A stretch of DNA of 64,000 nt from Escherichia coli (GTDB lineage Bacteria > Pseudomonadota > Gammaproteobacteria > Enterobacterales > Enterobacteriaceae), in assembly GCF_030384885.1 (NCBI RefSeq), contig NZ_CP128613.1, one strand, 5' to 3'. Positions 37,455 to 40,050 of this stretch are shown here, in pieces (within the stretch, counting starts at the first letter, position 1; each line of letters begins with the position of its first letter). The notes under the pieces are model-generated. The model was not told the origin of the DNA and searched no databases. It saw nothing but the letters and a program-made list of their open reading frames with translations. Position numbers and translations under genes: made by a program.

Positions 37455-37500
37455 TTTTATTTTTGCGAGGCGTTTTCCAGATATGATGTAACAGTTGCAG
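37455..37500. promoter_or_regulatory. conserved promoter/operator-like element, copy 1 (upstream of yiiF)
   Basis: ttttatttttgcgaggcgttttccagatatgatgtaacagttgcag; near-identical copies at about 37900 and 40012. Confidence 0.5.
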
Positions 37501-37586
37501 TTATTATAAGTTCAAGTAAAACAACCTTGTATTAATACCAGAATAAGGGCATCTGGTTTTTATATTCAAGAATAAAAAATTTTTTG

Positions 37587-37805
37587 TCATTCCTTATGCT
37601 CCTTACACTGATCATCGACCCCCACTGTCTCCCCCTTTTGCCTGCCTCCCTTTGCTTTACGCACCGGGAATTGCTGACGTTCCAGATATTGCTCTACCGC
37701 TTCGCGTAAAATTGCAGATCGTGAAACCTTACGCCAGCCCCGAAGCTTGTTCAGCCGTTTAATTGCCTCGTCTGATAAATGAAGAAAAACCGTACTCATC
37801 ACCAT
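37587..37805 (-). CDS. yiiE: ribbon-helix-helix (CopG-like) DNA-binding protein
   Basis: ORF 37587-37835; start set at MVMSTVFLHLSDEAIKRL (72 aa); paralog of yiiF (shared LREAVxQY). Confidence 0.8.
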   Translation of the reverse strand: MVMSTVFLHLSDEAIKRLNKLRGWRKVSRSAILREAVEQYLERQQFPVRKAKGGRQKGETVGVDDQCKEHKE

Positions 37806-37899
37806 CGCCACCACCTTACATATATCGTTCATCAATGCATGGTGCGAAAATTACGCCGAAAATTTAATTAATAAAAGCTGATTTTTGTATCTTGTTTTA

Positions 37900-37950
37900 T
37901 TTTTGCGAGACGTTTTCCAGAAATAATGCTACAGTTGCATTCCTTTCAAT
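37900..37950. promoter_or_regulatory. conserved promoter/operator-like element, copy 2 (upstream of yiiE)
   Basis: ttgttttatttttgcgagacgttttccagaaataatgctacagttgcat. Confidence 0.5.
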
Positions 37951-38053
37951 TATTATTGAAAAACGGTTCAGCTATCGTCAGGGATGATTTACTATTCTTC
38001 ATCAGATGCTGGCGCCCTCACAGGAAAGAAGTGGTAAATAATAAGGATGAGTT

Positions 38054-38593
38054 ATGGATGCCATGAATATGTTTTGCTCAGTAATATTTATTTTCTTTAT
38101 TGGTTTTGCATGGATCTTCGGTTACCTCATCCGCATGATGTACCCGAAAAAAATCAGCGTTTTTACCGCTCCAGGGTTTAGCGGGACCGTTACCCTGCCA
38201 AAAGCAGGAGACTACGCGGTAACTATTACACTCCCACATAATAGCGGCATTGCGTCAAACCTGCCCGGCGCGAGTTTTTATTCAGCGCAATTTAGTATAT
38301 CTACGACTGGTAGGCAGCAAGATATTGCGCTGCAAAGAACAGGGAAGTGGGGAGCTTACTCGTGTAACAAAGATTTCAGTGGCAATAATAGCCATATTAT
38401 TGGCCTGTTTCACTGTCATCAAACTCCGGCAAATTACGACATTATCTGTACTAATCCGGAGGTCATTCACGACACCTATAAAGTGGAGATCATTAACTAT
38501 ATCTCACTTGGAAAACAGATGATGAAAACCATCCCCGGTTGGATCCTTGTTTTTATTGCGATAGGGTTACTTATTATTCCGCAAGTAAGTTAA
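38054..38593 (+). CDS. hypothetical membrane-anchored protein (179 aa)
   Basis: RBS aagga; hydrophobic segments at both the N- and C-terminus; no recognisable motif. Confidence 0.6.
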   Translation: MDAMNMFCSVIFIFFIGFAWIFGYLIRMMYPKKISVFTAPGFSGTVTLPKAGDYAVTITLPHNSGIASNLPGASFYSAQFSISTTGRQQDIALQRTGKWGAYSCNKDFSGNNSHIIGLFHCHQTPANYDIICTNPEVIHDTYKVEIINYISLGKQMMKTIPGWILVFIAIGLLIIPQVS

Positions 38594-38624
38594 TGGCAGA
38601 GATGACTGCACTGCATCCATCGCA

Positions 38625-38658
38625 GACCGGTCAGTGCTGCCACCAACCGGTCTTTAAT
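38625..38658 (+). terminator. hairpin terminator after the 179-aa ORF
   Basis: agaccggtcagtgctgccaccaaccggtct followed by ttaattt. Confidence 0.5.
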
Positions 38659-38660
38659 TT

Positions 38661-38939
38661 CTAGTAGTAGTAAATTTGCGGATAACAGTCCGGGAACCAG
38701 ACGATTCCTTGCGGATCATCCCCCTGCATTACCCGATAACATTGGCGTCGATCATCGGCACGACGGCGAAGCGTAGTGTAGAGCCGCTTCCATTCATGAT
38801 CGCCCGGTGTACTGTAGTTTACCCAACAATCCATTGAAGGATGACGCCATTTACCTGTGAGTGTTGGGATCCCTGAATGCTTATGCGGCTTCGCTTTACC
38901 ATTACGATCCCGGTCTTTACGCGTATTAAATGTGGACAT
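38661..38939 (-). CDS. hypothetical small basic protein (92 aa)
   Basis: ORF in the island, co-oriented with the upstream TA pair and the 70-aa ORF. Confidence 0.5.
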   Translation of the reverse strand: MSTFNTRKDRDRNGKAKPHKHSGIPTLTGKWRHPSMDCWVNYSTPGDHEWKRLYTTLRRRADDRRQCYRVMQGDDPQGIVWFPDCYPQIYYY

Positions 38940-39000
38940 TTTTAGTCTCCTGCTAAGAGTTCTAAAAATGTGCTTCCTTAAAATAGTTCATCATTTTCCC

Positions 39001-39213
39001 TTAATTCGAATAGCGTGCTTTTGCACGAATTTCCGATACGCGGGGACCATTATGATAACGTCGATGTCCACACATCCAACAAGAGCACATACAGGGAGTA
39101 CGAAAGCAAACACCTGATGCTTTTTTGCTTCCATCGCCTGCTGTGCGATAACGACGGCGGATTTTTTTTAATCGCGCCATATGATGGCGACGTTCAGCAC
39201 GATTACGGGTCAT
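39001..39213 (-). CDS. hypothetical small basic Cys-rich protein (70 aa)
   Basis: RBS aggag 7 nt upstream of the ATG; basic N-terminus and Cys cluster CFRTPCMCSCWMCGH. Confidence 0.55.
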   Translation of the reverse strand: MTRNRAERRHHMARLKKIRRRYRTAGDGSKKASGVCFRTPCMCSCWMCGHRRYHNGPRVSEIRAKARYSN

Positions 39214-39220
39214 AGCAATA

Positions 39221-39321
39221 CTCCTGAGCAGGCGGCACTATGCCGCTTTCATAGGAGTTCTGAATGCTGGTGCTTTCTGTATGGCATAACCATGCCTCTA
39301 ACGGTTAAGTGCTTGCAGCAC
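39221..39321. repeat. ~100-bp direct repeat, copy A (3' end of the antitoxin gene through the RBS of the 70-aa ORF)
   Basis: ctcctgagcaggcggcactatgccgctttcataggagttctgaatgctggtgctttctgtatggcataaccatgcc...; about 93% identical to copy B at 41038-41137. Confidence 0.8.
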
Positions 39322-39588
39322 ATGTTGCGGATCATTGGCAATCGCTCGCAGCAAAGCCTTTGCAGGCCCGGTCGGTGAACGCCGCCCCTGCTCCCAGTTA
39401 CGCAACGTGTCTACGCTTACGGAAATAAGATCGGCAAATTTAGATTGTGACAACCCTGAAGCACGGCGTATTTCTTTGATTTTCATAGCATCAACTTCAA
39501 AAGTCCGTGAAGGCTGTCGCGTTCCTTCAATAATTTCATTCATCTGGGCCATGCTGTGAGTCAACCGCTCAAAAAGTGCCTTATCCAT
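39298..39588 (-). CDS. HigA-2-like antitoxin, XRE-type HTH protein (96 aa)
   Basis: HTH region IKEIRRASGLSQSKFADLISVSVDTLRNWEQGRRSP; directly downstream of the toxin-like ORF. Confidence 0.8.
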   Translation of the reverse strand: MDKALFERLTHSMAQMNEIIEGTRQPSRTFEVDAMKIKEIRRASGLSQSKFADLISVSVDTLRNWEQGRRSPTGPAKALLRAIANDPQHVLQALNR

Positions 39589-39810
39589 TTACCACCTCGT
39601 ATTTAACAACCGGAGCATTGCTTTTTCCTGGGGAGACAGATCATCTTTAATACCCTTACGATAAATAAGCAGTAATCTGATCTCATAATGTTTAACCTGA
39701 TGAAAGTAAATAACCCTGACACCAGCACGTTTCCCCTTTTCTCCTGAGACCCATCGAACCTTTCTTAACCCACCAGTTTCAGGTATTACCTCACCGTAGT
39801 CAGGATTCAA
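39589..39810 (-). CDS. HigB-2/RelE-family toxin-like ORF; conserved N-terminal region continues upstream to about 39900 with no canonical start
   Basis: TTG-initiated ORF (..GGLRKVRWVSGEKGKRAGVRVIYF..); the same frame upstream encodes ILFIETEIFPEDVQKLLNDDEFSRFQFFLAL before reaching a stop, with no ATG/GTG/TTG. Confidence 0.6.
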   Translation of the reverse strand: MNPDYGEVIPETGGLRKVRWVSGEKGKRAGVRVIYFHQVKHYEIRLLLIYRKGIKDDLSPQEKAMLRLLNTRW

Positions 39811-40011
39811 GGCCAGGAAAAACTGAAAACGACTGAATTCATCGTCATTCAGCAGTTTTTGAACATCTTCTGGGAAAATTTCCGTTTCGATGAAGAGTAT
39901 AACTGTACGCCATTGGCTTAGAGTAACAATCCTTTTTGTACGTCATTGACGTACCCCTGAAACCACTAGCTTACTGATAGTGCTACAGCAAAACCACGTC
40001 TCTGCCGAGTT

Positions 40012-40050
40012 TGTCTTTACATTTGCGAGGCGCTTTCCAGATTTTCCACG
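40012..40050. promoter_or_regulatory. conserved promoter/operator-like element, copy 3 (between the toxin gene and the esterase gene)
   Basis: ctttacatttgcgaggcgctttccagatt, sharing the core TTTGCGAGGCG(T/C)TTTCCAGA with copies 1 and 2. Confidence 0.5.

Follow-up and report, generated by a model that had tools for sequence, protein, structure and literature searches.

A repeated 20-base element upstream of yiiF, yiiE and a RelE-like toxin/nadS operon of Escherichia coli is a likely Sxy-dependent CRP site

We analyzed a repeated 20-base element in the window, a 64,000-nt (64-kb) stretch of Escherichia coli contig NZ_CP128613.1. Its three copies lie upstream of yiiF, of yiiE, and of an operon comprising a RelE/ParE-like toxin gene and nadS, and each copy is likely to be a CRP-S site. 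Such sites are non-canonical CRP sites, from which CRP bound to cyclic AMP (cAMP) activates transcription only with the competence co-activator Sxy (TfoX). The element was read as a CRP-S site because it matches the published motif exactly and resembles the sites of sxy and ppdD. The E. coli motif, T4G5C6G7A8-N6-T15T16C17C18A19, is non-palindromic, requires both of its differing half-sites and works in either orientation (PMC6728893, Sondberg et al. 2019, quoting Sinha 2009). In the 22-bp CRP frame, the three sites are as follows:

37461-37482, putative CRP-S site 1, upstream of yiiF, core TGCGA-GGCGTT-TTCCA at 37464-37479, exact motif match
37901-37922, putative CRP-S site 2, upstream of yiiE, core TGCGA-GACGTT-TTCCA at 37904-37919, exact motif match
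40021-40042, putative CRP-S site 3, between an esterase gene and the toxin/nadS operon, core TGCGA-GGCGCT-TTCCA at 40024-40039, exact motif match

The window was searched with the pattern TTTGCGAGGCGYTTTCCAGA, allowing at most 3 mismatches, with shuffled sequences as the control. The core TTTGCGAG(G/A)CG(T/C)TTTCCAGA was found three times, always on the plus strand: at 37462-37481 (0 mismatches to the search pattern), 37902-37921 (1 mismatch) and 40022-40041 (0 mismatches). The shuffles gave an expectation of 0.01 core matches, and three matches were reached in none of 100 shuffles. On the minus strand, which is that of the three genes, the core reads TCTGGAAA(A/G)CG(C/T)CTCGCAAA. These counts bear out the first-pass annotation of this sequence, which had described one element before yiiF, yiiE, and the toxin-like gene. 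Its placement of the element 90-250 bp upstream was right as to side and too generous as to range, the distances from the core to the annotated start codons being 92 nt for yiiF (37370), 97 nt for yiiE (37805), and 122 nt for the toxin-like gene (39900). The motif TGCGA-N6-TTCCA occurred in the window at the three copies only (0.23 expected). All three have the TGCGA half-site with C at position 6, and all three have the second, differing half-site TTCCA at exactly 6-nt spacing.

We compared the copies with validated sites of E. coli K-12. The sxy site TTCGGAAAGAGCCTCGCAAA is identical to the window copies at 15-17 of 20 bases and the ppdD site TCTTCGTAACGCCTCGCAAA at 15-16 of 20, with a 13-mer in common with copy 1. 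The chance of at least 16 matches out of 20 in a 200-nt upstream region is ~1.5e-4. The T-rich flank of the copies fits the CRP-S half-site TTTTGCGA. Like the window sites, the sxy and ppdD sites (Cameron & Redfield 2006; Sinha et al. 2009; Jaskolska & Gerdes 2015; Sondberg et al. 2019) combine the asymmetric core TGCGA-N6-TTCC(A/G) with a T-rich flank. They differ in controlling competence genes and in having been tested by electrophoretic mobility shift assay, quantitative PCR or reporter, whereas the window sites are known from sequence alone, precede antitoxin-type genes and an esterase gene, and are closer to the consensus (TTCCA) than the sxy site (TTCCG). The canonical CRP site (CRP-N, TGTGA-N6-TCACA) shares with the window sites the 22-bp frame, the 6-bp spacer, and A/T-rich flanks. 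Unlike it, the window sites have C for T at position 6 and TTCCA, not TCACA, as the second half-site. A C at this position has been reported to lower CRP affinity 80-fold; given this base and the TTCCA half-site, CRP alone should therefore bind poorly. Regulation of the three sites by Sxy and CRP is predicted from their sequence. The presence of Sxy/TfoX was judged from the annotation of K-12, where sxy lies outside the window region. As other identities of the core, the sites of MetJ, PurR, Cra, sigma-32, sigma-E, and LexA were compared by eye and none fits.

The spread of the 20-mer was assessed by scanning a genome collection (one genome per species, 298 Gb) for the exact 18-base pattern TTTGCGAGNCGNTTTCCAGA. 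The scan returned 70 loci, about 50 from Enterobacteriaceae in many differing flank contexts and about 20 from outside this family; about nine chance matches were estimated for a collection of this size. The commonest layout was esterase, 85 nt, site, 93 nt, yiiF-like ribbon-helix-helix (RHH) gene, and vapC (Citrobacter, Enterobacter, Lelliottia, Salmonella diarizonae, and others). Other neighbours were a RelE-like toxin with NadS, RelB/RelE, Gp49-family toxins, ParD and, in one genome, radC, a member of the Haemophilus influenzae competence regulon. In Buttiauxella, Pfam confirmed Gp49/COG4679 toxins next to the 20-mer, and other Enterobacteriaceae probably have them there too. The 20-mer occurred in either orientation relative to the gene, as in a relBE cassette described below.

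Within E. coli, K-12 carries two perfect copies, before yiiE (b3889) and yiiF (b3890). Site 1 was identical in five E. coli strains despite differing flanks. At site 2, strains differed in the N6 spacer alone (GGCGTT, GACGTT, GGTGTT), so that half-sites were constant and the 6-nt spacer variable; the sampled strains KS21 and SF-088 had TGCGA-GACTGC-ATCCA there. Copy 3 with its flank is present in 2671 of 5426 E. coli genomes, a single time in each, and its position is also occupied in other genera. As an unbiased check, homologues were sampled through protein similarity alone. The Citrobacter freundii homologue had the exact 20-mer, that of Klebsiella pneumoniae had TATGGAAAGCGGCTCGCAAA with both half-sites intact, and that of Salmonella Infantis had TGCGA-N6-ATCCA, with the half-sites nearly kept. 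In this protein-based sample, the site was absent, with background matches only, from the plasmid-borne RHH-VapC homologues of Burkholderia, Rhizobium, and Ewingella and from the plasmid-borne toxin/nadS homologues of Klebsiella and Acinetobacter.

The position of the sites was considered relative to the genes and predicted promoters of the yiiF-yiiE region:

37128-37370, minus strand, yiiF, annotated as an RHH protein and orphan VapB-type antitoxin
37587-37805, minus strand, yiiE, RHH/CopG-family paralogue of yiiF, with weak RelB-like and CopG-like profile matches
37409-37437, minus strand, predicted yiiF promoter from cross-genus alignment, -35 TTTCTT (37432-37437), 17-nt spacer, -10 TACTTT (37409-37414)
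37848-37876, minus strand, predicted yiiE promoter from cross-genus alignment, -35 TTTTAT (37871-37876), 17-nt spacer, -10 TAATTT (37848-37853)
37373-37389, minus strand, GATAT-N6-GATAT repeats beside the yiiF ribosome-binding site, candidate RHH antitoxin operator

Cross-genus alignment revealed weak sigma-70 elements on either side of the site. Those of yiiF-type genes are -35 TTTAAC, 17 nt, and -10 TATGTT; on the esterase side, -35 TTTYCA and -10 TATAAC precede a conserved LexA box. In the alignment, 24-25 nt separate the 20-mer from either -35 element. For the window, the starts predicted in this way for yiiF, yiiE, and the esterase put the site centre near -70. Of the class I CRP positions, near -62, -72, -83, and -93, the predicted centre comes within ~2 bp of the one near -72. 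A scan for the sigma-70 consensus found fewer promoters in the region than in shuffles, none of them overlapping the core. We propose that, when cAMP is high and Sxy accumulates, CRP-Sxy would occupy the sites ~70 bp upstream of the weak sigma-70 promoters and recruit RNA polymerase through a class I contact. Transcription of yiiF, yiiE, the RelE-like toxin/nadS operon, and the divergent esterase gene would be turned on in this way, with LexA additionally holding the esterase off. The antitoxins would autoregulate via other, promoter-proximal repeats, namely the GATAT repeats for the RHH proteins and a TACGTCA/TGACGTA palindrome for NadS. That CRP binds here, that it depends on Sxy, and where promoters and transcription starts lie is what we infer from motif and alignment.

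One cis-element stands before all three genes, and co-regulation is therefore implied, as the first-pass annotation had supposed. The annotation had also taken the element for a shared operator, through which the RHH proteins YiiE and YiiF and the helix-turn-helix (HTH) antitoxin would regulate themselves or one another. Being an exact CRP-S match, the 20-mer is not a plausible operator for these proteins, and we consider this reading very unlikely. It draws on the position of the element before three genes of small DNA-binding proteins, on the fact that antitoxins usually autoregulate, and on a near-palindrome, TGCAACTGT(T/A)(A/G)CA, that flanks copies 1 and 2. The near-palindrome beside copy 2 is, however, not conserved in K-12-like strains. 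The 20-mer itself has no inverted or direct repeat symmetry and lies ~25 nt upstream of the predicted -35 element, whereas symmetric elements occur elsewhere (37373-37389 and 39939-39953). It is, moreover, found with unrelated antitoxin folds (RHH, HTH/NadS, RelB, ParD) and with radC, sxy, and ppdD, which are not toxin-antitoxin (TA) genes. Burkholderia and Rhizobium homologues of YiiF/VapC lack the 20-mer yet have GATATA-type repeats at the ribosome-binding site, the same position as in Enterobacteriaceae. Because distant RHH-VapC homologues without the 20-mer keep these repeats, they are the likelier operator, at which RHH antitoxins would bind.

The element could also be taken for a sigma-54 promoter with GG and GC doublets 10 bp apart (TGGAAAGCGGCTCGCA), pointing to the genes. 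The GG-N10-GC spacing is right, the variable positions lie within the spacer, and the element is oriented towards yiiF, yiiE, and the toxin gene. Against the sigma-54 consensus TGGCAC-N5-TTGC, however, three positions are missed, with departures at the well-conserved C after GG and T before GC. In the relBE cassette between nrdG and cybC, the element points away from the relBE operon, and the closely similar sxy and ppdD sites are dependent on CRP and Sxy. Between fdhE and fabY, the annotation shows no gene for an enhancer-binding protein. The only sigma-factor entry found for the yiiD-yiiE spacer from systematic evolution of ligands by exponential enrichment (SELEX) is a weak peak in the table of the stationary-phase sigma factor. 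The chance that the element is a sigma-54 promoter thus appears very slight.

Copies 1 and 2 form a 45-nt repeat of 89% identity, and copy 3 has the core alone in common with them. The extra stretch TACAGTTGCA that the first-pass annotation had noted in copies 1 and 2 is accordingly real in this strain, but it is not conserved in K-12-like strains, which have TGCAACACTCTTA at copy 2 instead. The gctacag motif near copy 3 (39983-39989), which had been likened to this stretch, lies on the other side of the core and is not positionally equivalent. A common descent of all three modules had been suggested as well. It holds for yiiE and yiiF, which are paralogues (38% identity, E = 8e-11), but not for toxin/nadS, which has just the 20-mer in common with them and not ancestry. 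The paralogy, together with upstream regions that align past the core, would fit repeats that are functionless remnants of a tandem duplication of promoter and gene. This is the least credible of the readings considered here: the core is all that copy 3 shares, it persists in differing genera and gene contexts with diverging flanks, and its half-sites do not vary from strain to strain.

Some comparisons between genera placed breakpoints at the element. Homology between the toxin/nadS-type locus of Citrobacter amalonaticus and the yiiF/vapC-type locus of C. freundii stops 2 nt past the motif, and pairwise homology between the two types of loci ends 2-7 nt after the site. In Enterobacter hormaechei and Huaxiibacter, which lack the esterase, the flank that a relative has on the far side of the esterase comes to within ~8 nt of the motif. 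Copy 3 retains the ancestral esterase-side flank, and copy 1 the ancestral yiiF-side flank. On these grounds, the 20-mer might be mainly a recombination junction or core for the insertion or swapping of cassettes, its copies being scars of successive insertions. We judge this unlikely, although it would be compatible with CRP-S function. No integrase or recombinase adjoins the element, the motif lies 100 bp inside the 707-bp relBE insert and not at its edge, and the left flank of copy 2 is still esterase-promoter-like, for which ordinary segmental duplication is the better fit. Breakpoints beside a selected site are also expected, since events destroying the site would be lost. The breakpoints could thus reflect cassette exchange or, equally, the survival only of rearrangements that spared a selected site. 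A more speculative and rather doubtful extension of the CRP-S reading is that the site serves as a conserved docking point at the esterase/fdhE locus. Unrelated TA cassettes (RHH-VapC or RelE-like/NadS; both of these together with yiiE in E. coli) would have been exchanged or stacked behind it, the breakpoints falling at the edges of the 20-mer. Chromosomal TA modules of Enterobacteriaceae would then be systematically wired into the Sxy regulon, here beside an SOS-controlled esterase.

The gene order in the window is fdoHI-fdhE (plus strand), yiiF and yiiE (minus), an open reading frame (ORF) of 179 aa (plus), ORFs of 92 and 70 aa (minus), nadS (minus), the 103-codon RelE-like toxin gene (minus), an alpha/beta hydrolase gene (plus), a transposase-like gene, and fabY (yiiD). 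The region is near-identical to that of E. coli 2013C-4282 (NZ_CP027579.1). The stretch from yiiE to fabY differs greatly from one to another of 5,426 complete E. coli genomes, with at least 80% of the window version covered in 210 only, and copy 3 lies in accessory DNA that is absent from K-12. The features around copy 3 are as follows:

39589-39900, minus strand, RelE/ParE-like toxin gene of 103 codons, homologues annotated as RelE/ParE-family toxins
39298-39588, minus strand, nadS, HTH antitoxin partner of the toxin, match to NadS NF041265 (E = 1.2e-16, 60.7 bits, curated cut-off 60)
39939-39953, palindrome TACGTCA-T-TGACGTA before the toxin gene, candidate NadS-type operator
40129-41037, plus strand, alpha/beta hydrolase, hormone-sensitive-lipase type esterase, divergent from site 3
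40097-40112, plus strand, LexA-box-like CTGT-N8-ACAG (full AACTGTACATTCATACAGCA at 40095-40114) over the predicted esterase transcription start, with a predicted -10 TATAAA at 40090-40095
38054-38593 (plus strand), 38661-38939 (minus strand), and 39001-39213 (minus strand), accessory ORFs between copies 2 and 3

The palindrome TACGTCA-T-TGACGTA is kept in toxin/nadS loci of Citrobacter, Enterobacter, Salmonella, and Acinetobacter, in the last of these without the 20-mer, and is a candidate site at which NadS would bind. The start of the toxin gene (39898-39900, minus strand) is ATA in the window strain versus ATG in other strains, and the bases just upstream also differ (GTACAGTT in the window versus GTATAATT). 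In strain KS21, the toxin gene carries a frameshift. With nadS still intact, the toxin seems to be in decay. Window position 40008, not itself part of the site but 14 nt from copy 3, is A, with G in NZ_CP027579.1 and three other sampled strains.

The element had also been proposed to act as a divergent control region at copies 2 and 3. For copy 3, this agrees with our results: the esterase starts 88 nt away (40129), about 20 further loci of Enterobacteriaceae have it as the divergent neighbour of the site, and the layout, including a LexA box for the esterase, is conserved across genera. The pairing of copy 2 with the 179-aa ORF (133 nt to its start at 38054) is strain-specific. The LexA-type box is kept as CTGTATGGATATACAG and similar sequences in >15 genera or species, at loci that were chosen on the 20-mer alone. 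This suggests that the esterase is SOS-regulated, divergently from the predicted CRP-S-controlled operon.

Precedents for control of TA operons by CRP and Sxy are hicAB P1, higBA, chpSB, hokD, and H. influenzae toxTA. The hicAB P1 promoter of E. coli (Turnbull & Gerdes 2017) is an upstream promoter activated through CRP-S and Sxy and is combined with a proximal promoter repressed by the antitoxin. The toxin/nadS locus resembles it in sequence, with a distal CRP-S site and a proximal palindrome that would point to a similar two-promoter arrangement. The proteins, in contrast, are unrelated, and the published hicA site was not confidently identified in the K-12 sequence. No TGCGA-N6-TTCCA match was found in the K-12 upstream regions of hicA, higB, hofM, relB, and hokD; those of hicA and higB contain TCTGGAAT-type sequences, which we do not equate with the published sites. 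Upstream of chpS, reported to be Sxy-induced, K-12 has the palindromic TGCGA-GACGAC-TCGCA and a second element, TATGGAAAGCGGCTCGGAGA. In H. influenzae, toxTA (HI0660/HI0659) is under CRP-S/Sxy control and, like toxin/nadS, has a RelE/ParE-superfamily toxin gene first and an HTH antitoxin; the window toxin belongs to a different subfamily. The K-12 sulA-sxy spacer combines a LexA box (CTGTATGGATGTACAG) with a CRP-S site, a layout comparable to that of copy 3 and the esterase. A further likeness is offered by sbmC (gyrI), described as a class I CRP-S promoter; sbmC is also SOS-regulated. Unlike those of sulA-sxy and sbmC, the LexA box of the window belongs to an esterase gene that is absent from K-12 and for which SOS control is predicted.

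Several points weigh against CRP-S control of these genes. No literature linking yiiE or yiiF to Sxy was found in a search that did not cover Sinha et al. 2009, where copies 1 and 2 may already be listed; what was found on the two genes amounts to the weak SELEX peak of the stationary-phase sigma factor, induction by SlyA, and mentions in expression surveys. The transcription starts are predicted only, and an alternative yiiF promoter from the scanner, TCGACA-18-TAGATT, would place site 1 near -83, still a class I position. Loci of the genome-collection scan were chosen by their exact match to the 20-mer, so that perfect conservation among them is circular, and the unbiased samples, protein-based and strain-based only, are both small. 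Toxin homologues on Klebsiella plasmids are without the site. Finally, as the toxin gene of the window strain starts with ATA, activating its operon may matter little there.

The surroundings of yiiF vary between genomes. A vapC gene is kept downstream of yiiF in E. coli E57, Klebsiella, Citrobacter, and Enterobacter, and has been lost from beside yiiF in most E. coli. In the window, sequence of the repetitive extragenic palindrome (REP)/bacterial interspersed mosaic element (BIME) type lies downstream of yiiF at 36980-37083, in the place where other strains and genera carry vapC. Of the Rfam models, ES036 matched there with 45.8 bits, which exceeds its gathering score, and naRNA4 with a score that falls short of it. 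The Rfam scan gave no match at the motif or at a 98-nt repeat described next, its only matches being REP-derived, near 37001-37083.

The block of nadS, toxin gene, and esterase is flanked by a 98-nt direct repeat of 94% identity (39220-39317 and 41037-41134), which contains the 3' end of nadS and a hairpin-forming sequence. The repeat was found in 3369 E. coli genomes, once or twice in each and at this locus only, at times without nadS (e.g., in O157). For the accessory ORFs that separate copies 2 and 3, NCBIfam and PHROGs gave no match to the 179-aa and 92-aa products, and the 70-aa product, rich in arginine and cysteine, matched phrog_4499 (E = 1.7e-13), to which no function is assigned there.

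Further loci with the 20-mer or a related sequence were observed outside this region. E. coli E69 (locus L038, 4020-5439) has a 707-bp relBE cassette between nrdG and cybC, which is present in 442 of 5,426 E. coli genomes and replaces about 39 bp of the empty site (seen in L074 and L075). The cassette has its own perfect CRP-S 20-mer, which points away from relB and stands beside the palindromic TGTAATGCATTATAGCATTACA. In five loci from Kosakonia and related metagenome-assembled genomes (L010, L047, L050, L053, L067), the 20-mer lies ~147 nt upstream of a long ORF (524 aa in L067) that by eye resembles a phosphotransferase-system permease, with no TA gene nearby; this may be a CRP-S-controlled sugar-uptake gene. 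Three loci filed as Robinsoniella, Bacillus coahuilensis, and Chryseobacterium (L025, L059, and L072) contain enterobacterial yiiF-type sequence and are probably contaminated assemblies; the flank of L059 was inspected and apparently matches K-12-like E. coli. On small Col-type plasmids of Enterobacter and Salmonella (L094 and L095), TGTGAC(G/C)GCTTTTCCG occurs ~50 nt upstream of a toxin homologue, overlapping the end of mbeD. It joins a canonical CRP half-site to a TTCCG half as in the sxy site, and could be either a CRP site or a product of chance.

CRP-S sites, and control of some TA operons by Sxy, are already established. In the literature searched, Sinha 2009 lying outside that search, we found no description of copy 3 being paired with an esterase predicted to be under LexA control, nor of the site recurring next to five TA families across genera. 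For annotation, the element carries a warning: a motif common to the upstream regions of small regulator genes need not be their own operator. If the sites work as predicted, yiiE and yiiF, two uncharacterised regulators of K-12, would join the Sxy/CRP competence regulon together with an accessory TA pair and an esterase. Several TA families would thereby be added to the few tied to Sxy so far (hicAB, higBA, chpSB, toxTA). This locus would offer a concrete place to ask why competence control and TA modules are linked.

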